Below are positions 20,935 through 37,240 of a stretch of 61,799 nucleotides of DNA, piece by piece. The position numbers were made by a program, and so were the translations under genes. This DNA is from Patescibacteria group bacterium. GTDB taxonomy: Bacteria > Patescibacteriota > Microgenomatia > UBA1400 > MFAQ01. A model generated the notes under the pieces. It was not told where the DNA came from. It did not search any database and saw nothing but the letters and a program-made list of their open reading frames with translations. The DNA is taken from the NCBI GenBank assembly GCA_943355005.1, contig CALRDV010000007.1, forward strand, positions 1 to 61,799, written 5' to 3'. The first letter of the stretch is position 1, and every line of letters begins with the position of its first letter.

Positions 20935-21390
20935 TTAGATTATTTGACTAAATTGCTGTTCATTGTGAATAGCTACGTTAGAGAGATCCAGCGCCCTCAT
21001 CCAATCAATTTTAATCTCGTACACCACGTAATCACTTCCCTTTACCTGCAATATCGGTGGCCAAAAATCCTCAACCGTAGTCGTAGACTCGGCCAGTTTA
21101 TCCAGAACAGATTCCAGCTGATTACTATCTGTAACTTCCCTTGTCGCTCCGCTGGCCTGGATTAGCATCTCGTGATTTCTCCATACAGAAAAGCTAATCT
21201 TAGGGTCTATTGCTAGAGATTTAGCCTTAATGGTACTACGGTGTGTAGCGAAGTACATCGTGAAGTCATCATCGATTGCATACAGTAGTACAGTTGCCAC
21301 CGGTCTTTCTGCATTATTAATCGCCGCCGACATAATCCGTTCTTTCCTCAAAAATGCCAACGCCTTGCTTTTGCTGTCTAAATCACTCAT
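20935..21390 (-). CDS. Pyridoxamine 5'-phosphate oxidase-like FMN-binding protein
   Basis: MYFATHRSTIKAKSLAIDPKISF; QASGAT. Confidence 0.85.
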   Translation of the reverse strand: MSDLDSKSKALAFLRKERIMSAAINNAERPVATVLLYAIDDDFTMYFATHRSTIKAKSLAIDPKISFSVWRNHEMLIQASGATREVTDSNQLESVLDKLAESTTTVEDFWPPILQVKGSDYVVYEIKIDWMRALDLSNVAIHNEQQFSQII

Positions 21391-21477
21391 ATCTTTATGA
21401 TATCACTGTTAAATTTGCTTTACGGTACAAAAACAACCCGATCTTATTCAGGTTGTTATCGTAATATTTTAATATTA

Positions 21478-21981
21478 TTATCTTGAAGCCGAGATTTGAG
21501 CCGTCGCAGATTCGGACGAGCAAGCAGACACGGTCACAATTCCGTTTGCATCCTGAACGATTTTATATCCGGTAATAGCCGCAGTCCCCACTCTTGGATC
21601 TACAGGCATCTTCTTCAAATATGCAGCTAAAGTAGTCGACAAGTCTAGACAAGCAGCAGCAGTTGGTGGTGTCGTGCAGTTAGTGGTGTTACAAAGTGTG
21701 GCGCTAGTACCCAATTGCTTTTCGGTGGTTGTAATACCTGCGGGCACAGTACCGCCGTTATCTACGATAGATTCATGAACAGCCGTCAAAATTGTTTCAA
21801 CATCAGTATATCTTTTACTATCTCTTGCATCTGCAAATCTTTTAACCGGATTCAAAGCTACAAATACCGTTACAGCTAGGATTGAGATAATTAGGATTAC
21901 GATTAATAGTTCAATAAGCGTAAATCCTGCCTGCCGGCCGGCATGGCCTTTTTGTATTCTTTTCATTTTATTTTTTAACAT
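21478..21981 (-). CDS. Type IV major pilin
   Basis: G|FTLIELLIVI prepilin motif; ARDSKRYTD; PVDP; Cys pairs. Confidence 0.9.
   Translation of the reverse strand: MLKNKMKRIQKGHAGRQAGFTLIELLIVILIISILAVTVFVALNPVKRFADARDSKRYTDVETILTAVHESIVDNGGTVPAGITTTEKQLGTSATLCNTTNCTTPPTAAACLDLSTTLAAYLKKMPVDPRVGTAAITGYKIVQDANGIVTVSACSSESATAQISASR
21926..21946. repeat. CCTGCC...GGCAGG-type mini palindrome in the pilin leader
   Basis: cctgcctgccggccggcatgg gives HAGRQAG before FTLIE; related copies at 59887 and 61381. Confidence 0.6.
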
Positions 21982-21987
21982 TACTAA

Positions 21988-23202
21988 TTATCTTTTTTCC
22001 GTCCCCACTACTATAACTAAATCATATTTATTATCTTTAGTCAAAGTTTCGGTTTCATTTATTACATAGCCGGAGATGCTTTCTTTTGCCTTATCCTTTA
22101 CGGTCGCTGGAATACTAGTCTTGGCTTGCAAAAATCCACTAATTGTCGCTTCGGCATTCCCGGTATCCACTATTACAAATCCTTCCGCCAGGAGAGTATC
22201 TTTAATTCCTGCCGCCACTCCGGTCACACCACTTCCATTGAGTACTTGAATCGAATACTTACTAAAATCCAACACCACTGTCGTCGGAGTCGGAGTCGTA
22301 GCCGGTGCCGAAACTGTCTTATCGCTCGCTTTCTCGTTTGCTGAGTTAGGTTTACTTCTTTGGTAAGACAAAGAAAACCAACCCACTCCCCCAATTAAAG
22401 TTATCAGAAGTATCACCAATAATATTTTTGACCACTTCTTTGCACTTACCTTATTATCCTCAACCACAGCCACTTCACCTGCAACCGGACCAGTAGTCGC
22501 GCTCTGTGTTCTCACATCAAGATCCACATCCTTAATTAGTTGCAAACTCAATATATCTGCATCTGAGCCTTTATTTTTTTCATTATAAACTTCGTCGTCA
22601 ATTTTAAAGTTCTTATCATCAAGCAATAGAACTTTTGGCTCTGCTTTGAGAGACCACTTAACCTTTGCCAGATCCAGTATCTCCTGATCCTCAACCTCAG
22701 AAAACACAGAATCCACTAAACCTCGGACAGCGAGAACTTTCAGTTTTTCTTGTCCTGACCACTTCACCAGAACAGGAGATTTTTCCAAGATAGACTTTTC
22801 GCCCATCAATATTCCAACAGGAATCAGTATACCCACTTTAATCTTGTTCAGTTTTATCGCTTTAGAAAGTAGATTCAAAAAAGTCATCTCCACTGCCACT
22901 GACTGCACCCAAGCATCTTCTCCGATTTTTACCATTTTCCAGTCAAAGTTTTCATTGCCGATTTCTACCGGGAAAAAGCTCTGAGTTTTTATCTGAATTT
23001 CCTCCCGGCTTAGTATCTCTACCTCACTGGCAGGAAAAGAGCACAAATAACTCACATCATTTCCGAGAACGATACGAAGATCATTAGAATTAATTTTCTC
23101 TGAGTTGGTTTTAAAAATATCAATTAGCTCATCTTCTTTCCAAGGGAAAGCCGAACTCCCAATCCAAACTTTATTTTTTGTAATATAGATAATTTTCTTC
23201 AT
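21988..23202 (-). CDS. Pilus-associated protein: PilM/GspL-like N-terminal region, TM helix, LytR_C domain
   Basis: IQVLNGSGVTGVA...YDLVIVVG (LytR_C); the cytoplasmic N-terminus is reminiscent of an actin-like PilM fragment (inference). Confidence 0.6.
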   Translation of the reverse strand: MKKIIYITKNKVWIGSSAFPWKEDELIDIFKTNSEKINSNDLRIVLGNDVSYLCSFPASEVEILSREEIQIKTQSFFPVEIGNENFDWKMVKIGEDAWVQSVAVEMTFLNLLSKAIKLNKIKVGILIPVGILMGEKSILEKSPVLVKWSGQEKLKVLAVRGLVDSVFSEVEDQEILDLAKVKWSLKAEPKVLLLDDKNFKIDDEVYNEKNKGSDADILSLQLIKDVDLDVRTQSATTGPVAGEVAVVEDNKVSAKKWSKILLVILLITLIGGVGWFSLSYQRSKPNSANEKASDKTVSAPATTPTPTTVVLDFSKYSIQVLNGSGVTGVAAGIKDTLLAEGFVIVDTGNAEATISGFLQAKTSIPATVKDKAKESISGYVINETETLTKDNKYDLVIVVGTEKR

Positions 23203-23579
23203 ATCTCCAGCCAGCTATTAATCGTTACAGTTGTAGTTCTAGTCGCCACAACTTTCACACTTTTTGTGTACCCACCCAAAGTTACCGAATAAGTCACATC
23301 CCAATCATTACCCACTTGAGAATTAATTGTAACAGTACAAGTTCCTTCAGGCAAAACGATAGTTCCCGGTATGGAATTATTTTTACTTAATCGGATAAGC
23401 CCATCCTGAGCACATGCATTTACTAGTCCCAGCGCCACTTCACTTTTTGTATCAGCGAGTGCCGATTGAGACTCGTTTATTCCATTAAGAATCACCGAGA
23501 TCCCTATAGTCAAGACTACCGCTCCCACCACCAATACGGTAGATATTGCGACATAACCATTACCTTTTTTTGTCATCAT
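23199..23579 (-). CDS. Minor pilin (PilX/GspK-like)
   Basis: G|YVAIS lacking E5, then a hydrophobic helix; A..CAQDGL.RL. Confidence 0.75.
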   Translation of the reverse strand: MMTKKGNGYVAISTVLVVGAVVLTIGISVILNGINESQSALADTKSEVALGLVNACAQDGLIRLSKNNSIPGTIVLPEGTCTVTINSQVGNDWDVTYSVTLGGYTKSVKVVATRTTTVTINSWLEI

Positions 23580-24112
23580 TTGCCTCTTATTTCCGCGCTC
23601 CCTATCGCGGTCTTAGTGTAGTTCCACTCTTCACGACCTCCATTATTCAAATTACTAATTGTTAAATCATATTTTATTGAAGCAGATTTATTCCCTGCAT
23701 CGCTCATACTAACAAAGTTTAATTGGTTCACCACCAAATCACTACTGGTCAAGTCACACGGACTAGCTACGGCACAAGTAATTCCTCCCGTCCATCCAAT
23801 TGTTATTTTGTTTCCCGTCTTTGTTATTACTACCGGATTTCTGGTCGCATCCGCAGTAGCCAGAGAAATACTCTGCGGGGTCATACTGTTTATGGCTGAT
23901 GCGTTTCGAATCTCATAGGCTATTCGCTTCATTACTTGTCTCGAAGAGGCCACCACATTCTGTCCCACTCTAGTTTTTACTCTTACCGTAATCAGCTCAA
24001 CCCCAATAGACACTACCCCTCCGATAAATATCATAAACAAAGCTACATACAGGATAAGCTCCACCAATGTCATTCCTTTATGATTTTTTAGGGTCATTCT
24101 CATTGTTTCCAA
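23576..24112 (-). CDS. Minor pilin (PilW/GspJ-like)
   Basis: G|MTLVELILYVAL; EIRNA. Confidence 0.85.
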   Translation of the reverse strand: METMRMTLKNHKGMTLVELILYVALFMIFIGGVVSIGVELITVRVKTRVGQNVVASSRQVMKRIAYEIRNASAINSMTPQSISLATADATRNPVVITKTGNKITIGWTGGITCAVASPCDLTSSDLVVNQLNFVSMSDAGNKSASIKYDLTISNLNNGGREEWNYTKTAIGSAEIRGK

Positions 24113-25914
24113 TAGGTAAAATAAAACGGACTATTGATTAGTTGTGGCAAAGTAGTTTCCAGAGCAGCACCCCCATCAGCGTTACTCCAAGTAAATACCG
24201 GGGTAGACGTCATTATCAATCTTTTTGCAAACAAGCTCGCAGTACTAGAGGATACCGTAAACATTAGTTGATCCTTACTCACAGGATCAGATTCGACCTT
24301 ATACCATCGCTGTGTCGCATTAAGCGCGGGAGTGGTAGCAAAGTCTGCTTGGACGGTACAGGTTGATGTTGTGCATGCATACCAGCCAATATTTGTAGCT
24401 GCACTATCGTTATAAACGATTATCGATCTTGTTGTTGCTCCGGATATTGTCCACCCTGTCGCCACAAGCTTTGATCCCGCCACCGGAGTGGCACAAGAAG
24501 TATCTACATTTGCCGCACAAGTAAAAGCGGTTCCGGACCAGTAGCATCTCTGCATATCAGATCCAGCATTCCCAATACTAGCAAATACTATTTCGTCTGA
24601 ATTAGGATTACTGGAAATATCCAAATTTGTCGCATCGTCCGATAGTGTCGGTGGCGTCAGGACTCCACTCCAAGTACACCCGGAAGTTCCTCCTGTACAA
24701 GTCGCATACCTCACCCCATTTGTCCCATTGGCACCGACAGCTAGGGCAAACATTATCATTACATCACCGGACGAAGATTCATATGTCACATCAAAACCAT
24801 CGATATCTTGTGCAGCAGCCACCACCTCCAGGGTAGTTGCCAAGGCTGCCGTTGGCTCATTTCCCCAAGCCGTACCGGACCACACCATGGCAGATAAATC
24901 AGAATTACTATCCGCCCAGATAGCCGTAATCAGATTTTGTGCCGACCTTGCATCTCTTGCCATTTTTATCCACTGCACAGTCCCTGTTGTTCTGATTGGA
25001 TCCAAGTTTGTTGCAGCGCTCCAATTAGCTGCTCCGCACGCACTTGAACCAAGTTTTGTTCTGTAAGCAAGCTCATTAGTAGTAGGTGCATTGGTACTGT
25101 AAAGCACGATTGCATCACCGGAATTTGTTTCATAAGATATGTCAAATCTTCTTGTTGTTCCTGTACCCCCAACCGTTACCGAGAAATCATTTGTCCACGT
25201 AGTTCCATCAAAACACATTATCTGAAGTAGCCCTGCAGCAGTAATGTATCCAGCGACTGCTTCATTTTTGGTCGGAGATGTTTCCATTTTGAAGCTAACG
25301 CCCGAAGCTCCGACCAAAGTACTTCCTTCAGTGGAAAATGTATTTGCCGTCCTATCATAAGATCTTGTCTTTGGTGTGGTTGTTCCATCTCCATACACAA
25401 TTAAGCCCCCCGTCAAAGTTGTTATTATCGATCTGGCATAATTTGTTAAATAAGAAACGAGAGAAGCTGTGTTAGTTATCGGTGGCACTCCTCTACTCCA
25501 CGTCACTCTCGACTCGACCTTATACGTATCCGGATCCGAGCTGCCCCCGGAAGTTACCACATTGCCGGACCCATCCCTGTTTACCGGATTTACAAATACT
25601 TGTCTGGTGTATTTTCCATATACATTATTACTACCCGAAAAAGCCCAAGTCCCGGCTGATGTAGCCAGACCACATCCTGAAGTACAGCTAGTAGCAAGTA
25701 GTGGAGTAGCCCAACCTTGCTTTCTCAAAGCACCCACAGCATCAATACCCTCAGCTGCAAAGTGAGTAGCCGTCCCTTGCTCATCAGCCAAGCGGTTTGT
25801 TCTCAAGCTTCCCAAGATAAGAATAGTTCCTGATCCTGCCAGTATAGCCCACAGTCCAATAGCCACCACGATTTCCACCATCCCAAACCCATATTTAACA
25901 TTATTCTCTTTCAT
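24100..25914 (-). CDS. Large minor pilin (PilV-like) with a ~440 aa Trp/Cys-rich C-terminal adhesin-like domain
   Basis: G|FGMVEIVVA; AAEGIDAV; repeated (W/F)(S/D)GT.W beta-propeller-like motifs. Confidence 0.8.
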   Translation of the reverse strand: MKENNVKYGFGMVEIVVAIGLWAILAGSGTILILGSLRTNRLADEQGTATHFAAEGIDAVGALRKQGWATPLLATSCTSGCGLATSAGTWAFSGSNNVYGKYTRQVFVNPVNRDGSGNVVTSGGSSDPDTYKVESRVTWSRGVPPITNTASLVSYLTNYARSIITTLTGGLIVYGDGTTTPKTRSYDRTANTFSTEGSTLVGASGVSFKMETSPTKNEAVAGYITAAGLLQIMCFDGTTWTNDFSVTVGGTGTTRRFDISYETNSGDAIVLYSTNAPTTNELAYRTKLGSSACGAANWSAATNLDPIRTTGTVQWIKMARDARSAQNLITAIWADSNSDLSAMVWSGTAWGNEPTAALATTLEVVAAAQDIDGFDVTYESSSGDVMIMFALAVGANGTNGVRYATCTGGTSGCTWSGVLTPPTLSDDATNLDISSNPNSDEIVFASIGNAGSDMQRCYWSGTAFTCAANVDTSCATPVAGSKLVATGWTISGATTRSIIVYNDSAATNIGWYACTTSTCTVQADFATTPALNATQRWYKVESDPVSKDQLMFTVSSSTASLFAKRLIMTSTPVFTWSNADGGAALETTLPQLINSPFYFTYWKQ

Positions 25915-25915
25915 A

Positions 25916-26344
25916 TTAATTCACCTGTGTCATTCCGGCTGCGTTTATATTTATCGTATTGCTTCCCAATGCGGTTGTTACAGATATCGTCGTGACCGCA
26001 TCTGGCTCTCCACGACTATTACTAAAAACTACCGAAGTTAGACCGGTGACTGTTACACCATTACCCAAAGTAAAGTCCTCCTTTTGGTTTGGCGATGCAC
26101 AGCTACCATTAAACATTCTAATTATCGAACCCGTCTTGCAGACCCCCCAAACCATACTCCCGGACACACTCTTTCCATCCATGGCATAGTTCTGTGCCTT
26201 TGATATTTCCGAGGCAATCCTATCAACCGTAATATGCCAATTATTTCGCAAAATAAAAGTTGACAAAAATGGTGATGAATATCCGGTAATTATCGAAACT
26301 ATTGCGATTACCAAGATTAATTCAATAAGTGTGAAACCTTTCAT
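25916..26344 (-). CDS. Minor pilin (FimT/GspH-like)
   Basis: G|FTLIELILVI; AQNYAM; F...GEP; ININAAG. Confidence 0.85.
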   Translation of the reverse strand: MKGFTLIELILVIAIVSIITGYSSPFLSTFILRNNWHITVDRIASEISKAQNYAMDGKSVSGSMVWGVCKTGSIIRMFNGSCASPNQKEDFTLGNGVTVTGLTSVVFSNSRGEPDAVTTISVTTALGSNTININAAGMTQVN

Positions 26345-27387
26345 TACCCTCGTATTCCCCCGATCAAAGAGTAGATCGGACTAATAATTGCAATCGCCAC
26401 AAAACCCACCACCAGACCAATCGAAATTAAAAGTATCGGCTCCAGAAGAGTAGTTAGACTTTTACTCAAAGTATCAATATCATCATCATAAAAGTCGGAT
26501 AGATATATCAGCATCTCTTCTAGATTTCCGCTTTTTTCACCCACCTCTACCATTCTCCTGGTTAGCTGGTCAAACTCCGGGTAGTTGCCGGACTCCATCG
26601 ATTCGTAAATAGACTTTCCTGTTTTAATTTTTTCTCTGATCTTTTTTAGATCATCCACAAACACCAAGTTTGACAAAGTATTTCCCGTAATTTCCAAAGC
26701 AGACAGCATGGGAATACCACTTTTTAAAAGAGTACCCAAGTTTCTACTAAATCTTGCCAGTTGACCATCCATCGCAATTTTTCCCATCACTGGGATATGG
26801 AGAGACATTTTATGGCCAAATTTCTTCACCGGTCTCCACTTAAATAAAAGGATCAAAAGAAAGACCAGCAGTATCATTCCCAAGAAAACATAGCCTCCAT
26901 AATCCCTCATAAAGAACGCGAGCCACATAAGAACTCTTGTAGACATAGGTAAAGCCACCTCAAAAGAAGTAAACAAATCGATTAATTTCGGCAACACAAA
27001 CCACGAAATTCCTGAACCCATTACTAGAGTAGCCCCCATGACAAGACCGGGGTAAAGCATTGCTCCCTGAACTTTTTGCTTAAGCGCGTAATCTTTCCTG
27101 GTCTGATCAGCAAGAAAACCTAAATTTTCTTCCAAATTACCGGACTGCTCACCGGCATCCACCAAACTCACAAAAAATCCATCAAAAATTTTAGGATACT
27201 TTGCTACCGATTTAGCCAAACTCAGCCCGTTATCAATATCCAAATTTACTTTTTTTAGGACTTTTTTCAATTCCGGTGTTGATTGATCCGTAATTGTCTC
27301 CAAAGCCTGATCTACCGGCACCCCGGCTTTTATCATAATAGAAAGATGTTTTGCCAAAAATAGTTTTTCTGTTACCGAGACACTCAT
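26344..27387 (-). CDS. pilC: Type IV pilus/T2SS platform protein (PilC/GspF)
   Basis: AGEQSGNL, AMLYP, VGEKSGNL, LLEP. Confidence 0.92.
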   Translation of the reverse strand: MSVSVTEKLFLAKHLSIMIKAGVPVDQALETITDQSTPELKKVLKKVNLDIDNGLSLAKSVAKYPKIFDGFFVSLVDAGEQSGNLEENLGFLADQTRKDYALKQKVQGAMLYPGLVMGATLVMGSGISWFVLPKLIDLFTSFEVALPMSTRVLMWLAFFMRDYGGYVFLGMILLVFLLILLFKWRPVKKFGHKMSLHIPVMGKIAMDGQLARFSRNLGTLLKSGIPMLSALEITGNTLSNLVFVDDLKKIREKIKTGKSIYESMESGNYPEFDQLTRRMVEVGEKSGNLEEMLIYLSDFYDDDIDTLSKSLTTLLEPILLISIGLVVGFVAIAIISPIYSLIGGIRG

Positions 27388-29069
27388 TATGTTTTTACTT
27401 CTCTTAATAATTCTTGAATTGTCGTCATTCCGTTTTTAATTTTCATCATGCCATCTTCGGCCATCGTCACCATTCCTTCTTTGATAGCAATTTCTTTGAT
27501 TGTCGAAGCGTCACTTTTGGCCACAATAGCATCCTTAAGAGCTTCCGTAATCGGCATAATTTCATAAATTCCAACCCTGCCCAAATATCCCGTTTTTTTA
27601 CAAATGTCACAGCCCTGCCCGTGGTAAGTACGAATACCCTTAACTTCTTTGTCGACAAACTTATCCACCAATTCTTTTGGCAATTCCTTAGCCAGTTCTT
27701 CTGCAGCTATTACCTCACTTACTCTACAGCTCGTACAAATTTTCCTCACCAGTCTTTGTGCCACAATCAAGTTCACAGAAGAAGCCACCAAAAAAGGCTC
27801 AATCTTCATCTCCAAAAGTCTGGGAATCGTCGTTGCCGCATCATTAGTATGGAGTGTCGAAAGTACCAAGTGACCCGTGAGAGCCGCATTCACTGCAATT
27901 TCAGCAGTTTCTTCGTCACGAATTTCCCCTACCAAAATTATATTTGGATCTTGTCGAACGATAGATTTGAGTCCGGCAGCAAAAGTCAAATTGGTTTTTG
28001 TGTTTACTTGGATTTGATTTACTCCTCGTATTTGGTACTCTACCGGATCCTCAATGGTCATAATATTTACGTTCCTCTTATTCAAAATCTTCATAAACGC
28101 ATACATTGTCGTTGTCTTTCCTGATCCCGTTGGTCCGGTCGAAAGTATCATTCCATACGGCTTAGAATAAGCACTTCGTACTTTTGATATGTTTTCTTCG
28201 GACAGACCAAGATCAAGCAATGCAAATTGCCTCATGTTACTGGCCAGAAGTCTCATCACTACCCTTTCACCGTTGGTAGCCGGCAAGATAGACACACGAA
28301 CATCTACACTCTCCACCTCTGGCACCATAAAGTTAAACTTCCCGTCAAGTGCTGATGCATGCTCGTCAGTCGGCAAGCTCGCCATAATTTTTATTCTGGT
28401 TATGATCTGACCTTCAATTTTCTTTGGCAAAATTAGAACATCTTGAAGTACCCCGTCAATCCGAAATCTGAACTGCAAAAATTCCTCGAAAGGTTCAATG
28501 TGAATATCCGAAGCTCTGCTCTGATAAGCATAAATCATCAGTGTATCCACTATCTTAATGATTGGTGCCTCCGCTTCCGGCGAACCTTTTATTTCGCTGG
28601 CCGATTTTTCAATTATTTCCTCAAACACTTCAATAGCCTCTTTCCTGTAAGCAAACAAGGCAAAGCGAATATCTCTTTCTGTCGCACTATAAACTACCAC
28701 CTTTTTACCAAATCTCTTTTTTACAAGCTCAATAGTAGCAATATCAGTGGGATTGTTCATCGCCACATGCACTTCCTTATCATCTTCATAAAAAAGCAAA
28801 AGCAATTTTGACCGAGACATCAATTCAGGAATCAAGCTTAATGTCTCTCTCTTGATTGCGGTTCTTTCCAGACGTACAAAGGGTACACCCCACATGTCGG
28901 CAATTAGCATTCCCAAATTTTCATCAGAAATCAAATCTCTGGCTAGTAATATTTTTCCCAAATCATCACCCGTTTCCTTGACCTCTTCAAAAGCATCATC
29001 AAGCAATGCTTGATCAATTACACCCAAATCACTCAGCTGTTTATATACCGAATCGTTATTAACAATCAC
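27387..29069 (-). CDS. pilB: Type IV pilus/T2SS assembly ATPase (PilB/GspE)
   Basis: ASDIHIEP, GPTGSGKT, RQDPNIILVGEIRD, TGHLVLSTLH, tetra-Cys. Confidence 0.95.
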   Translation of the reverse strand: MIVNNDSVYKQLSDLGVIDQALLDDAFEEVKETGDDLGKILLARDLISDENLGMLIADMWGVPFVRLERTAIKRETLSLIPELMSRSKLLLLFYEDDKEVHVAMNNPTDIATIELVKKRFGKKVVVYSATERDIRFALFAYRKEAIEVFEEIIEKSASEIKGSPEAEAPIIKIVDTLMIYAYQSRASDIHIEPFEEFLQFRFRIDGVLQDVLILPKKIEGQIITRIKIMASLPTDEHASALDGKFNFMVPEVESVDVRVSILPATNGERVVMRLLASNMRQFALLDLGLSEENISKVRSAYSKPYGMILSTGPTGSGKTTTMYAFMKILNKRNVNIMTIEDPVEYQIRGVNQIQVNTKTNLTFAAGLKSIVRQDPNIILVGEIRDEETAEIAVNAALTGHLVLSTLHTNDAATTIPRLLEMKIEPFLVASSVNLIVAQRLVRKICTSCRVSEVIAAEELAKELPKELVDKFVDKEVKGIRTYHGQGCDICKKTGYLGRVGIYEIMPITEALKDAIVAKSDASTIKEIAIKEGMVTMAEDGMMKIKNGMTTIQELLREVKT

Positions 29070-29155
29070 ATCTTAATAATAACATTTAAGCCACACAGTC
29101 TATTCAATTACTGAAAATAAATAAAAAAAGGATATGATTAATTAGGCCAAATTTT

Positions 29156-30409
29156 ATGATGACAAATTCAGACAACCAAATAAATTTAGATAGGATTTTT
29201 AAGTCCCGTTTAACCGCCTCGGAAACTGTCGCTGTAGGCGTCAAGAAGTTTACTATTCTACCGGATCGCCCTTTTCCTTTTTTACCATGGCAATATGTTT
29301 GGGTAGAAATTCCGGCGCTTCAATTCCCGGATACTCACGGCAACCGGCGCGCCTTTTCTATTTTTAATGTCATAAACGAATCCAACACTATAGATATTGT
29401 AGCCAGAATTAGCGAAAGCGGTTACAAACAAAGCCTATTTAATCTTTCCCATGGATCGGAAGTCACTATCCACGGCCCCTTCGGCAGCAGTTTTACTACA
29501 CAAGAAGGTTCAAACAAAAATATCATTATGATAGCAGGCGGTGTGGGTATTGCCGCCTTTATCTGCCTCATAAAAACGATGGGAAAATTCTCTTCTCCTC
29601 CCAAATGTTTCTTAGACTATTTAAACAACAGCCAGGAAATTACTCCTTTTCTAAACGAGTTGGAAGACCTCAAAAATCAATATAATTTTTTTGACTACAC
29701 CGTAAACTACGAACCCTTTAAGTTCGAAGATGTTGCCCATGTCAAGAACAAATTTGGTGACAATATCAGGTGGCAAATCACGGGTCCCCAAAGCATGGTA
29801 GATCATGCTTATTCTGTACTAAGCTCAAATAATATAACCCGAGAAAGCATGGAGTTTGAAAACTTCTACCCAACACCACCAAACAATCTTACCGTTTCGA
29901 CGATCAAAGAGCAGCTTTCCAGTGACAATCTTTTTGCAAGAGCTATCCAATATTCCTCAAGCCACACCATTATTACTGATGCTAACGGAGTTGTCCTATT
30001 TGCCAATTTAGCAGCTCAAAAAATTACCGGCTACACAGAAACCGAAATGGTTGGCAATACCCCGAGGCTTTGGGGAGGACTGATGAATCCCGATTTTTAC
30101 AAAGAATTATGGAAACACAAAGCGGAAGGCTCTTATATTAGTCATCAAATAAGCAACCGAAGAAAGAATGGAGAAATTTATTACGTAATAGCACACATTT
30201 CCCAAATTCAGGGTCCGGCAGGTGAAATAATTGGCTACATAGCCACTGAAGAAGACATTTCTGCGCGAGTAGCCTTCGAAAAAGAACTGGAACAAAAAGT
30301 CGCGGAGCAAGAAAGACTGAACAAAGTCATGGTCGGCCGGGAACTAAAAATGATTGAGCTCAAAGAAGAAATCAAAAAGTTAAAAAATCCCTTAACAAAT
30401 TCTAATTAA
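29156..30409 (+). CDS. Ferredoxin-NADP reductase-like FAD/NAD(P)-binding domain fused to PAS and a coiled-coil tail
   Basis: RRAFSI, GPFG, IAGGVGI, TGP..MV, FENF; PAS ITDANG...N.AA..ITGY...RKNGE; tail MVGRELKMIELK. Confidence 0.85.
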   Translation: MMTNSDNQINLDRIFKSRLTASETVAVGVKKFTILPDRPFPFLPWQYVWVEIPALQFPDTHGNRRAFSIFNVINESNTIDIVARISESGYKQSLFNLSHGSEVTIHGPFGSSFTTQEGSNKNIIMIAGGVGIAAFICLIKTMGKFSSPPKCFLDYLNNSQEITPFLNELEDLKNQYNFFDYTVNYEPFKFEDVAHVKNKFGDNIRWQITGPQSMVDHAYSVLSSNNITRESMEFENFYPTPPNNLTVSTIKEQLSSDNLFARAIQYSSSHTIITDANGVVLFANLAAQKITGYTETEMVGNTPRLWGGLMNPDFYKELWKHKAEGSYISHQISNRRKNGEIYYVIAHISQIQGPAGEIIGYIATEEDISARVAFEKELEQKVAEQERLNKVMVGRELKMIELKEEIKKLKNPLTNSN

Positions 30410-32385
30410 TGGAAGCCTCTCTTGCTCAGCTTAGTATCTTGACTCTCAGTGTCCTTCTGGTCTTAGGCATCAGTGTTTTTGCCTATTATTATTCATTAAA
30501 GAAAGACAAGGTCTGGTTCTACGGCTATACCATGCTCCTTATTGTTCTGGTGCAGTGGATGTCGGACTCTGGAGCTTTTCTCACCTATCACGACTTTTTT
30601 ATTCATCTGGCTTCAACCATTCTATTTCCCTCTGTTATCTTCTGTTTGTTAGTTGTTTATGTTTTGGAGGGCAGCAAGAATGCCAGGCAACTATTTTATT
30701 TGCTATTACTGGGAGAACTTGGTTATTTTCTATCAGTGGCACTTCTCGCCGGCTTAAACAATTCCCCTTCCTATATTGATTTTGGAATGCCATGGTTTCG
30801 TAACCATTTTTTCTCCACCCTGGCCATCGTTATAGATTATGGAGTACTCTTCCTTTCCTGGCCACTTATTCACAACTCCAAATACAAATTACCGCTGTGG
30901 CTTAAAGTATGGCTTGTTTGCTGGTTGATGTTCGTTACGGACACTCTAGTTTTCAGCCTAGGTACTTTTTGGGGTCAAACTTCCCTTGAAGATATCATTA
31001 CAACAGGTTTGATTCTTCGCTCAATTCTCTCCTTAATTGTTGCCCCGGCTATTACGGTATATCTTGGGTCAATTTCAAGACAAAACAAACAAGATTTATC
31101 CTATCGTCATTGGGGTGAGCTGATCAGTCCGGAGGAGCAAGAAGTCGCCCTTCGGATTTCATCCCAAAAAATTGATGAGCTAGAGAAAGCAAAAGCGAAA
31201 CTCCAACAAAAAAATATTGACTTTGAAAATCAAAGTACAGCCATGCTCAACTTACTCGAGGATGTCGAAACGGAAAAATCAAAACTTGAAAGTTTAAACA
31301 ATAGGTTTAATCTCGCCAAGAATTCTGCTCATATTGGTATTTGGGAATGGGATGTGCCCAATAATATCCTTACCTGGGACGATGAGATGTATAAACTTTA
31401 TGGCATAAATAAAGAAAATTTTAGTGGAGCCTATGATGCCTGGCAAAGCGGTCTTCATCCGGAAGATAAGGAAGTTGGCAACCTAGCTATCCAGCAAGCT
31501 CTAAACGGTGAAAAAGATTTTGACCTAACCTTTAGAGTTTTGTTGCCGAACAAATCAACTAGGTATCTAAAAGCGTTTGCTGAAGTAGAAAGAGATGTAA
31601 ACAATAAACCAATCAAGATGGTTGGCGTAAATTTCGATGTTACTCACGACAAAGAAGTAGATCGTATGAAAACAGAATTTATTTCTCTAGCCTCTCACCA
31701 GCTTCGCACCCCCATTTCCGCCATCAAATGGTTTTCTGGCATGCTCTTAGAAGGTGATGCAGGCAACATGAACCAAGAACAGCTGGACTTTGTCAAAAAC
31801 ATCGCGGATTCAAACGAGAGGATGGTGAAGCTGGTAAATTCCCTCCTAAATATCTCTCGAATTGAATCCGGCAGACTCATGATTTCTCCAACACCTACAA
31901 ATTTAGGCGATCTTATAAATTCCATTACCAAAGAAGTAGACTCGGAAATTAAAACCAAAAATCAACAACTGAATATTTCCTTAGAGCCGAATCTTCCAAT
32001 TATTAATATCGACCCAAGTTTAATTTCGGAAGTCTACCTGAACCTAATTTCCAATGCCATCAAATACTCTCCAATCAATAGCCCCATCAAAGTAACCGCC
32101 TATCCAAAAGAAAACTTTATTATTTCCCAAGTCACAGATAACGGCTGCGGAATTCCGGGAAAAGACCAGTCTAGAATATTTGAAAAATTTTTCAGAACAG
32201 ACAAAAGTGTCAAGGTTAGTACGGATGGTAATGGTTTAGGACTCTATCTCGTCAAAGCCATCGTAGAATCCTCGGGTGGTAAGATATGGTTTGAATCGGA
32301 GGAGGATAAAGGAACTAGTTTCTTCTTTAGCTTACCTCTCAGCGGCTCTCCCGCCAAAGCAGGCGAAGTAACATTAAATAAATAA
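30409..32385 (+). CDS. Membrane sensor histidine kinase (VUT/YhhQ-like TM domain, PAS_3, HisKA, HATPase)
   Basis: ASHQLRTP H-box, NLISNAIKY, DNGCGI, GNGLGL; PAS IGIWEWD...LHPED; TM motifs EGSKNAR and DTLVF...FWG. Confidence 0.9.
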   Translation: MEASLAQLSILTLSVLLVLGISVFAYYYSLKKDKVWFYGYTMLLIVLVQWMSDSGAFLTYHDFFIHLASTILFPSVIFCLLVVYVLEGSKNARQLFYLLLLGELGYFLSVALLAGLNNSPSYIDFGMPWFRNHFFSTLAIVIDYGVLFLSWPLIHNSKYKLPLWLKVWLVCWLMFVTDTLVFSLGTFWGQTSLEDIITTGLILRSILSLIVAPAITVYLGSISRQNKQDLSYRHWGELISPEEQEVALRISSQKIDELEKAKAKLQQKNIDFENQSTAMLNLLEDVETEKSKLESLNNRFNLAKNSAHIGIWEWDVPNNILTWDDEMYKLYGINKENFSGAYDAWQSGLHPEDKEVGNLAIQQALNGEKDFDLTFRVLLPNKSTRYLKAFAEVERDVNNKPIKMVGVNFDVTHDKEVDRMKTEFISLASHQLRTPISAIKWFSGMLLEGDAGNMNQEQLDFVKNIADSNERMVKLVNSLLNISRIESGRLMISPTPTNLGDLINSITKEVDSEIKTKNQQLNISLEPNLPIINIDPSLISEVYLNLISNAIKYSPINSPIKVTAYPKENFIISQVTDNGCGIPGKDQSRIFEKFFRTDKSVKVSTDGNGLGLYLVKAIVESSGGKIWFESEEDKGTSFFFSLPLSGSPAKAGEVTLNK

Positions 32386-32398
32386 AATAAAACACAAC

Positions 32399-32767
32399 AT
32401 GACCAAGATACTAATCACCGAAGATGACAAATTCCTTTCAGCAGCATACAATGCCAAACTTACCAAAGCCGGCTTCGATACTAGAGTTGCCACAGATGGT
32501 GTTATGGCTTTAGACATCTTAAAAAGTTTTACTCCTGAACTCATAATTTTAGATCTGATAATGCCATTAAAAGACGGTTTCTCTGTCTTAGAAGAACTTG
32601 CCCAGAATCAGCAAACTTCAAATATCCCGGTAATTGTCATGACTAATCTAGGTCAAAAAGAAGACATAGACAGAGCCATGAAGCTTGGAGCCAAAGACTA
32701 TGTCATCAAATCGGATATTGATCCAAATCAGCTGGTCGCCAAAATTAACTCCCTCCTCGGTCTCTAG
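32399..32767 (+). CDS. Single-domain response regulator (REC)
   Basis: ITEDD, ILDLIMP, MTNLGQ, YVIK. Confidence 0.92.
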   Translation: MTKILITEDDKFLSAAYNAKLTKAGFDTRVATDGVMALDILKSFTPELIILDLIMPLKDGFSVLEELAQNQQTSNIPVIVMTNLGQKEDIDRAMKLGAKDYVIKSDIDPNQLVAKINSLLGL

Positions 32768-32869: not shown

Positions 32870-33133
32870 ATGAGCAATTTATATTTATTTTATTTGATTC
32901 TTGGCGGGATTGCCACAATATTCTCTTCATTGCACCTACCAGCGTTCGCAACTAATATGCGCGCTGGAAGTTTTTCAACCCCCTATGAAGCTGAATTCAC
33001 CTGTATTTGTATCATATTCAGCCTCGTAACCCTATTCTCAGTTAACCTATTACCGGGACTACTATTCTCATCATTCTATATTTTCCAATTTTATATGGGG
33101 TGGTATGAAGAAAAAAAAGACCCAAAAGGATAA
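32870..33133 (+). CDS. Small membrane hypothetical protein
   Basis: Own promoter, SD gaggag and terminator. Confidence 0.6.
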   Translation: MSNLYLFYLILGGIATIFSSLHLPAFATNMRAGSFSTPYEAEFTCICIIFSLVTLFSVNLLPGLLFSSFYIFQFYMGWYEEKKDPKG

Positions 33134-33146
33134 TCCGTTCAAAAGC

Positions 33147-33175
33147 AAAACTCCGACCCAGGTCGGAGTTTTTTT
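33147..33175. terminator. Bidirectional intrinsic terminator
   Basis: aaaactccgacc-ca-ggtcggagtttttt. Confidence 0.7.
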
Positions 33176-33196: not shown

Positions 33197-33417
33197 AAAC
33201 CAACCTTTCGGTTGGTTACTTGGTTGCCCGGCGAGGCTCTGAAATAATTTTCCTCAAAATATTCCTTGCGAAGATTTTGAGATTAGAAAATTAATGAAGT
33301 TTGCCGGAGTCAGTTTCGTAACGAACCTGACGAGGCGGGCACCGCTAACGAAGTAGATCATCGCATTTTAAGCACCAAAAAACCAACCTTTCGGTTGGTT
33401 ACTTGGTTGCCCGGCGA
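33197..33417. mobile_element. Structured non-coding element flanked by 38 bp direct repeats of the 5S rRNA 3' end plus terminator
   Basis: aaaccaacctttcggttggttacttggttgcccggcga at 33197..33234 and 33380..33417; the core 33238..33339 is homologous to 61077..61183. Confidence 0.65.
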
Positions 33418-33527
33418 TGATCTACTTTCGCAATCAGTTGCCCAATCACTATCATCGACGCTGACCTGTTTCACTTCTCTGTTCGAAATGGGAAGAGGTG
33501 GTTCCAAGTCGCACAGATCACCGGACA
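33408..33527 (-). rRNA. rrf: 5S rRNA
   Basis: Reverse complement has the conserved CCCATTTCGAAC and AGTAG motifs; terminal helix tgtccgg/ccgggca. Confidence 0.9.
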
Positions 33528-33729: not shown

Positions 33730-36982
<3,253 letters not shown>

Positions 36983-37135
36983 CATATATTCTTTTGCTTC
37001 AAATTTGAATTTGAATTCGTGCGATCTACTTGCATAATCTATTCACTTTTCAAGGAACAACATTCGAAGCTCATTGAGCTCGTGGTTGATTCTAAGGGTA
37101 GATACCTTTGGAGTCAATCACCAGATCAATTTGTA

Positions 37136-37167: not shown

Positions 37168-37240
37168 TGGACCGTGCCGGACTCGAACCGGCCACCTCTA
37201 CATTGCAAATGTAGCGCTCTACCAGATGAGCTAACGGCCC
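37168..37240 (-). tRNA. tRNA-Ala (TGC)
   Basis: GGGCCGT...TTGCAA...GGTTCGAGTCC...ACGGTCCA; G3:U70; CCA not encoded. Confidence 0.95.

Follow-up and report, generated by a model that had tools for sequence, protein, structure and literature searches.

Type IV pili are controlled by the Pil-Chp system, with PilG/PilH, and by PilS-PilR. As in these systems, single-domain CheY-like receivers and a multi-transmembrane (TM) kinase are encoded with pilus genes in the locus described here. It lies in a 61,799-nt stretch of a Patescibacteria group bacterium genome (contig CALRDV010000007.1). The whole stretch is called the window below and positions refer to it; the genome to which it belongs (G000) is 1.25 Mb. 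Unlike the known systems, the window has no CheA-type kinase, sigma-54 PilR-type regulator or chemoreceptor. Its sensor, the 658-amino acid (aa) histidine kinase P0001, carries a transporter-derived TM domain and has a separate accessory sensor, P0002, as its partner. The locus belongs to a conserved cassette of four elements: an output-less accessory sensor, a kinase made of a TM sensor, PAS and kinase parts, one to three single-domain receivers and a pilB-pilC-pilin operon.

Sensors of the YhhQ-like type have their own entry in Pfam, PF20973 (VUPS, 'vitamin uptake-like sensor'), and are for that reason no novelty as a design; the novelty implied in the preliminary description of the locus was given up. 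The window kinase is a further example of this catalogued, uncharacterised family. Its N-terminal multi-TM domain scores above the family cut-off and is followed by a PAS/kinase output, as in most of 68 VUPS-positive relatives. It differs by a modest score (45 bits), by TM1-TM2 lying outside the match, and by its link with a pilus operon and with an accessory sensor, a link that belongs to this clade and is not a general VUPS trait. YhhQ/QPTR proteins (PF02592, COG1738) share with it a homologous six-TM core, three signature blocks in register and a cytoplasmic C-terminus, predicted for the window kinase and reported for YhhQ in the accessible part of the study cited (PMC5372724). YhhQ is a stand-alone transporter of ~220 aa (family ~200-250 aa), whereas the window protein is longer by an added N-terminal helix and a signalling tail of 430 aa and fails the Vut_1 profile. 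Energy-coupling factor (ECF) S-components (FolT, ThiT, PanT, BioY, RibU, CbiM; solitary BtuM) gave the best structural matches over the six-TM core, but with 7-16% sequence identity and with a predicted signalling role here; no ECF_trnsprt gene was found in the genome of the window. The value of the finding is thus that of a well-contextualised example of an uncharacterised family, not of a new kind of sensor. New here are a common C-terminal helix of the accessory sensors and a natural fusion of accessory sensor and kinase, and the surrounding cassette is more interesting than the VUPS sensor itself.

Sequence and fold of the sensor domain

The VUPS model scored 45.1 bits with the whole kinase and 51.2 bits with the TM part alone (cut-off 27), kinase aa 59-219 matching model positions 40-206 of 206. 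Vut_1 (PF02592; cut-off 27.2 bits) gave no row for the TM part even at E <= 10, and no MASE or 7TMR Pfam family matched it at that threshold. Identity as a MASE3-PAS kinase was rejected, as NCBIfam NF047874 gave 191 bits where 560 are required, and other known TM sensors were rejected likewise. VUPS is rare in the phylum: it was found at E <= 1e-3 in four of 301 sampled genomes, two of which, the window's included, were above the cut-off. With the TM query, a VUPS sensor was found in two of 60 relatives and in none of 12 same-genus genomes (the window's own genome excluded). P0001 is the only VUT-like protein in its genome. Literature searches for VUPS, PF20973 or vitamin uptake-like sensors returned nothing relevant, and no YhhQ-histidine kinase fusion was recognised by titles and abstracts.

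An exhaustive phmmer search with kinase aa 1-240 gave 101 cluster representatives at E <= 1e-3, the query included. A few were fragments, and the match started at most ~70 residues from the N-terminus in all of them except P0106, where it was internal; it precedes C-terminal parts of varied length. The query and 68 of the 100 non-self matches (size limit) were aligned (A3, 69 sequences). VUPS was matched in 68 of the 69 and Vut_1 directly in 19 (best E 6.7e-9); the output domains were PAS (33), HATPase_c (27), HisKA (24) and GGDEF (11).

The N-termini of 94 sensors were then compared by hhalign with an alignment of 18 Vut_1 genes from same-phylum genomes. Ten of 104 sequences were omitted as fragments or as internal or short N-terminal matches (P0012, P0026, P0033, P0058, P0059, P0060, P0063, P0067, P0077 and P0106). 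The two alignments matched with Prob 98.1% and E 1.1e-13 over 196 columns, which span sensor TM2-TM7 and nearly all of Vut_1. The narrow set of 12 orthologs alone (A1) gave 95.7% and E 9e-9. Two controls, one made by reversing the Vut_1 alignment and one from pilC membrane proteins, reached 0.1% each (E 0.45 and E 0.42, respectively), and the likeness of the sensor to Vut_1 is therefore far beyond chance.

Three N-terminal motif strings had been likened to Vut_1/YhhQ motifs before this analysis. Checked as regular expressions, W....TDTLVF....FWG was exact (aa 172-189), whereas the other two had been written one spacer short and read FP(8)V(3)EG.K.AR (aa 73-93) and R(4)S..A...D (aa 131-143). 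The likeness itself held, all three blocks (G88/K90/A92, R131/S136/A139 and D178/T179/F182/F187/G189) being in register with conserved Vut_1 blocks in the hhalign alignment. A better match to another known sensor than to Vut_1 had been named as evidence against a YhhQ origin. To the letter this is what was found, as VUPS scores and Vut_1 does not; in spirit it was not, because VUPS is itself a Vut_1-derived sensor family. The VUPS score, the hhalign result and the structure matches below all agree with the earlier proposal of a transporter-derived, VUT/YhhQ-like sensor. Judged from these comparisons, the N-terminal domain of the kinase is a descendant of the YhhQ-type vitamin/queuosine-precursor transporter family.

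Twenty-eight positions of the TM domain are invariant across the 12 sequences, which are 32-51% identical. The polar intramembrane invariants include Q49, W50, S52, D53, N132, H133, K166, D178 and R204. D178 is invariant in all 69 sequences of A3 (18-51% identical to the query).

Kinase aa 1-240 were modelled with AlphaFold2 (AF2; pLDDT 95, pTM 0.90), with helices at residues 5-31, 34-54, 67-87, 89-115, 127-154, 163-186 and 193-226. Seven TM helices were seen both in this model and in the hydropathy profile, followed by PAS-HisKA-HATPase_c. Structures were compared with VIA-align, on which, independently of Foldseek, the statement of fold rests. ECF S-components or solitary relatives made up 14 of the top 15 rows (FolT, ThiT, PanT, BioY, RibU, CbiM and BtuM by name; 4huq_S, 8ovv and 4m5c are entries which we take to be of the S-component class). 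From 146 to 177 residues were aligned (model residues ~27-230), with a root mean square deviation of 4.2-6.4 and Z of 6.8-9.1. With Foldseek, no PDB entry reached E <= 0.001, the top row being PanT (4rfs_S; prob 0.99, E 0.18), and a PDB sequence search with A1 gave 0 matches at E <= 10. As modelled, the TM domain is a six-TM VUT/S-component-like core with one extra N-terminal helix. Loops rich in K/R are found at aa 29-35, 87-93 and 155-166 and after aa 224; from these positions, the positive-inside rule predicts an extracellular N-terminus and a cytoplasmic PAS-kinase part.

A domain of this origin might still transport its substrate like YhhQ and signal flux or occupancy to the kinase part. 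It retains most of the signature residues of Vut_1, and no other VUT or ECF S-component gene was found in the genome. Pfam nevertheless keeps VUPS apart from Vut_1, whose model the kinase fails; the domain has an added N-terminal helix and is fused at its C-terminus, and close relatives manage without VUPS. Continued transport is most improbable.

The preliminary description had proposed that the sensor reads a nucleobase or cofactor supplied by the host, such as the queuosine precursors preQ0, preQ1 or queuine, and that this cue controls attachment pili. In its favour are the homology to Vut_1/YhhQ and the characterised members of that family, which import preQ0/preQ1 or queuine as reported in the accessible parts of two studies (PMC5372724; 10.1101/2023.12.05.570228). 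One gene of the tRNA-guanine transglycosylase (TGT) family was found in the window's own genome, and no QueA, QueC, QueF, QrtT-type ECF_trnsprt or Vut_1 was found there, which makes a salvage lifestyle conceivable; the kinase is the sole VUT-like protein of this genome. The genes do not co-vary, however: TGT is present in 52 of 60 relatives, Vut_1 in one and VUPS in two (own genome excluded), and all 12 same-genus genomes have TGT and lack VUPS. Further, VUT is treated as a broad vitamin-uptake group in Pfam and TCDB, and the YhhQ study, in its accessible part, stresses subfamilies of differing specificity and the vitamin scope of the VUT family (PMC5372724). The TM domain of the kinase does not reach the Vut_1 model. 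The TGT-family gene itself is atypical. It scores 267 bits, as against ~430 in 11 of the 12 same-genus genomes (263 in the sister genome G003), and both pocket motifs quoted in the accessible part of a Bartonella study (10.1101/2023.12.05.570228), GGLAVG and GG[LS][AS]G, are absent from it; this gene perhaps encodes something other than an ordinary tRNA-guanine transglycosylase. No link of the window sensor to queuosine genes was found in the genome and relatives searched, and the phyletic pattern gives no tie between VUPS and queuosine salvage. The named ligands are therefore unsupported: the idea draws on family resemblance only and is very unlikely to be right.

Linkage of kinase and receivers to a pilus operon

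P0001 is, from its domains and residues, a class-I membrane histidine kinase (HisKA + HATPase_c) with intact catalytic residues: H430 (H-box), N549, D577, G579, G581, G607 and G609 are invariant in the kinase core alignment (A4). The receivers are stand-alone, as had been described. REC1 and REC2 are single-domain proteins that keep their phospho-acceptor residues, and in six receivers of 119-132 aa, E8, D9, D52 and K104 are invariant and no output domain is present. REC2 shares 38% identity with REC1 and 85% with its counterpart in G003, which belongs to the same genus as the window.

The window PilB scored 535.6 bits against TIGR02538, below the equivalog cut-off of 675.65; T2SSE (416 bits) and MshEN pass. 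It is regarded as a predicted PilB/GspE-family ATPase in a pilin operon, not as a certified equivalog. Among the 12 same-genus genomes, an ortholog was found in G003 alone (78% identical); the remaining 11 have only paralogs (40-49%). For this reason the pilus operon of the window is taken to be an accessory pilus system.

Loci of relatives were searched with A2 (five closer sequences), which gave one locus in genome contigs and none in metagenome contigs. A scan of metagenome contigs with P0005 gave 40 loci. The TM domain was matched only in L032, L033 and L034, and in L047 the match began at aa 148; the remaining 36 loci matched the PAS-kinase part only and were not used. L034 was counted once with L006, as both gave the same tblastn matches at a constant 44-nt offset. 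Orthologs of the VUPS kinase in the other loci are 38-47% identical over the whole kinase. In all four independent ortholog loci (L006, L008, L032 and L033; Table 1), an accessory sensor, the VUPS-PAS-kinase, one to three receivers, pilB, pilC, a pilin gene and a gene for a 600-aa protein follow each other on one strand; L033 can be followed only to pilB. The receiver directly upstream of pilB in these loci is 47-54% identical to REC1. With G003, where the layout is that of the window, the pilus linkage is conserved, and the concern raised earlier that it might not be does not apply. A distant VUPS-PAS protein without kinase (G019, L007) is encoded away from pilus genes; because of this, the linkage is considered a trait of this clade and not of VUPS generally.

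The two-component system might also control a distant target or an unlinked transcription regulator, its adjacency to pilus genes being incidental. Gene order is indeed the only basis of the predicted connection between receivers and pilus, and a second cassette of accessory protein, kinase and receiver in the same genome (L031, contig C3) lies away from pilus genes. Yet in all four ortholog loci, and in L047 and G003 as well, kinase, receiver(s) and pilB stand in direct succession despite rearrangements, and REC2 is inside the pilus operon of the window. An unrelated target is accordingly quite unlikely.

Accessory sensor and fused kinase

P0002 matches PAS_9 (45.1 bits), FAD_binding_6 (21.3 bits, cut-off 21.1) and, below its cut-off of 22.2, NAD_binding_6 (18.4 bits). 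NCBIfam BenC/MmoC-like models gave 57-59 bits, far under their cut-offs. The sensory parts of the accessory proteins are unrelated between loci, FNR-PAS in the window and dCache_1 and/or HAMP elsewhere. A common C-terminal helix, …LNK.MVGRELKMIELK.EI… (…GRELKMIELK…), ends them in six of six loci (Table 1), with eight positions invariant in a 19-protein alignment. Another 38 proteins, 241-607 aa long, were obtained in a word search with P0002 aa 368-417. At the N-terminus they have PAS, HAMP, dCache_1, flavodoxin or HisKA_7TM; none has a kinase part, and three are labelled by their source as Patescibacteria, Pacebacteria and Magasanikbacteria. A literature search for the nine-letter helix motif found nothing. 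Only one other open reading frame (ORF) of the window's genome has the motif, a CHASE4-PAS protein whose gene precedes those of a PAS-kinase and a stand-alone receiver. In seven of seven inspectable loci the helix protein is encoded upstream of a PAS-kinase, with one intervening gene in the contig C3 cassette. A complex of kinase aa 225-500 (two copies) and accessory aa 250-417 (two copies) was predicted with alignments; its ipSAE of 0.02/0.01, as against a mark of 0.32, speaks neither for nor against binding.

In G003 the two proteins are joined. A 767-aa ORF encodes an FNR-like part, PAS, PAS, HisKA and HATPase_c in one soluble polypeptide. Its aa 8-389 correspond to P0002 aa 12-393 (56% identity) and its aa 371-767 to P0001 aa 262-658 (57% identity; BLASTP). 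The fused protein lacks VUPS, the beginning of the linker and the GRELKMIELK helix. VUPS was not found anywhere in G003, a genome 97% complete. The layout is as in the window: divergent, with the same REC1 and REC2 and with the pilB mentioned above. Where the two alignments overlap, 19 residues match the accessory helix and the linker helix of the kinase alike, from which these helices appear to be equivalent segments. Because G003 fuses them, accessory protein and kinase are placed in one pathway: a pair naturally split in one species and fused in another of the same genus is good evidence that they would share a single pathway. The coupling of a redox-type partner to the kinase, proposed earlier, is borne out in so far as a flavoprotein-PAS partner is coupled to it and is fused to it in G003. 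The coupling is also backed by the TAATG overlap of the two window genes and by the common helix that ends otherwise unrelated sensors encoded ahead of the kinase. All four outgroup loci have VUPS, and parsimony favours its loss by deletion in G003. The split/fused pair gives a handle on how separate sensor proteins feed a kinase.

Candidate pathway and layout of the locus

Our reading of the cassette, which is probably correct, is that a pocket ligand and an accessory redox signal set kinase activity and that the receivers act on the pilus machinery. A small molecule would bind the transporter-derived pocket, lined by the clade-invariant Q49, W50, S52, D53, N132, H133, D178 and R204. A redox or flavin signal would be relayed by the accessory protein via its C-terminal helix. 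Pocket binding and accessory signal would together set autophosphorylation of His430, and the phosphoryl group would move to Asp52 of the stand-alone receivers. Because these have no DNA-binding or output domain, their target would be the pilus machinery itself, most likely PilB, on which they would act post-translationally to switch pilus extension. In cultivated Patescibacteria, type IV pili serve to bind the host and to move, as reported in the accessible parts of two studies (PMC11623550; PMC10633639). The cassette is a concrete, conserved candidate circuit for pilus deployment, one input of which comes from the transporter-derived membrane domain and the other from a flavoprotein.

Several points weigh against this reading. 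The VUPS input is dispensable for the cassette, as G003 has a soluble fused kinase without it, and in L047 the same cassette has a dCache-HAMP kinase in place of VUPS. The window pilB is one of four paralogs in its genome (Table 1), and the predicted link of the receivers to the pilus is, as said, one of gene order. The FNR-like assignment of P0002 is weak, its FAD_binding_6 score being just above the cut-off. The AF2 model is consistent with an ECF S-component fold, which the domain would resemble, but Z values of this size are moderate for a helical bundle. The name of the VUPS family implies a vitamin-like ligand; neither ligand data nor other experimental work on any VUPS protein was found in the literature searched.

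From the swaps in G003 and L047, the inputs of the cassette are evidently interchangeable. VUPS could then be a membrane anchor, a dimerisation scaffold or a sensor of membrane state without a specific ligand, the inputs being the PAS domain and the accessory flavoprotein; G003 runs the same pilus-linked kinase without a TM domain, and L047 replaces it. The 28 invariant positions, many of them polar and intramembrane, the invariant D178 and the kept Vut_1 signature blocks speak against this and would fit a conserved pocket rather than a passive anchor. A ligand-free role is unlikely. The favoured reading of a ligand-binding pocket can be extended in a speculative way. The pocket may be a receptor for a host-derived micronutrient (a vitamin or 7-deazapurine), whose occupancy turns on host-attachment pili in small-genome, probably episymbiotic Patescibacteria. 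The …LNK.MVGRELKMIELK… helix may likewise be a lineage-wide plug-in that lets separate sensors (FNR-PAS, Cache, HAMP, flavodoxin, CHASE4) attach, without a covalent bond, to the signalling helix of a PAS-kinase. We regard this combined proposal as doubtful; if the plug-in were true, G003 would have the covalent version of the same wiring.

Table 1. Coordinates of the window locus and of the features compared with it. Positions without a prefix are those of the window.
Feature	Position	Strand	Evidence or content
Second stand-alone receiver REC2, 122 aa	20565..20933	-	Distal end of pilus operon; Response_reg 80.7 bits
Type IV pilus operon	20935..29069	-	Pfam T2SSE, MshEN, T2SSF, N_methyl, LytR_C, PNPOx_N
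PNPOx-like flavoprotein	20935-21390	-	Embedded in pilus operon
Pilin-like gene	21478-21981	-	In pilus operon
LytR_C protein	21988-23202	-	Embedded in pilus operon
126-aa protein	23199-23579	-	In pilus operon
Pilin-like gene	23576-24112	-	In pilus operon
604-aa protein	24100-25914	-	In pilus operon
Pilin	25916-26344	-	In pilus operon
pilC	26344-27387	-	T2SSF 196 bits
pilB	27387-29069	-	GTG start; T2SSE 416 bits, MshEN
Divergent intergenic region pilB / sensor operon, 86 bp	29070..29155	.	One weak sigma-70-like site, 29111-29138 (+)
Accessory output-less sensor P0002, 417 aa	29156..30409	+	FNR-like FAD/NAD(P) ~aa 19-239, PAS aa 260-369, C-terminal helix ~aa 375-410 (nt 30278-30385)
Sensor histidine kinase P0001, 658 aa	30409..32385	+	Seven-TM VUPS, coiled-coil linker, PAS, HisKA, HATPase_c; ORF + Pfam
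Seven-TM sensor domain, aa 1-225	30409..31083	+	VUPS match aa 59-219 (30583-31065); TM1 = extra helix before six-TM VUT/S-component-like core (predicted)
Helical linker, aa 226-320, including …AMLNLLEDVE…	31084..31368	+	aa 262 onward kept in fused G003 kinase
PAS domain, aa 321-408	31369..31632	+	PAS_3, 67.4 bits
Kinase core, HisKA aa 420-488 and HATPase_c aa 535-645	31666..32343	+	57.8 and 95.5 bits
Stand-alone receiver REC1 (P0003), 122 aa	32399..32767	+	Response_reg 81.7 bits
87-aa ORF	32870-33133		No Pfam match; downstream of REC1
Terminator-like hairpin	33147..33172	+	11 pairs + T run; after 87-aa ORF
5S rRNA	33409-33525	-	Downstream of hairpin
23S rRNA	33732-36983	-	Downstream of hairpin
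tRNA	37168-37240	-	Flanks 23S rRNA
Helix-bearing accessory protein, L006 (=L034)	L006:3942-5219		HAMP; 1 receiver; G045, a different family of the same order
Helix-bearing accessory protein, L008	L008:4114-5235		dCache_1; 2 receivers
Helix-bearing accessory protein, L032	L032:1199-2332		dCache_1; 2 receivers; contig of P0005
Helix-bearing accessory protein, L033	L033:29-1258		dCache_1+HAMP; 3 receivers; contig ends inside pilB
Helix-bearing accessory protein, L047	L047:4934-5878		
Helix-bearing accessory protein, L031	L031:6855-8390		
Second sensor cassette, L031	G000:C3:22000-36000		dCache_3/sCache_3-type Cache protein (521 aa, no output), CHASE4-PAS-helix protein, NMT1-like binding protein, dCache_1-HAMP-PAS-kinase, stand-alone receiver, LytR_C protein
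Fused kinase, 767-aa ORF	L075:12246-14549 (G003:C18)		
PilB-family paralog	C5:9611-11146		50% identical
PilB-family paralog	C11:23050-24696		44% identical
PilB-family paralog	C3:141476-143149		41% identical
TGT-family gene	G000:C9:44202-45269		

The kinase and REC1 reading frames lie where the preliminary description had placed them. Its statement that their operon diverges from pilB across 86 bp was right for the gap, but the operon starts at the accessory gene and not at the kinase: the TAA stop of the accessory gene shares 1 nt with the ATG of the kinase (TAATG), and from this overlap the sensor operon is considered to begin one gene before the kinase, at 29156. LytR_C genes, like the one embedded in the window pilus operon, are also present in the pilus operons of L006 and L008. 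In the whole window no match to 16S rRNA was obtained; downstream of the sensor operon, the 23S rRNA gene is 3252 nt long compared with a model of 2925 positions, which corresponds to ~300 nt of insertions.

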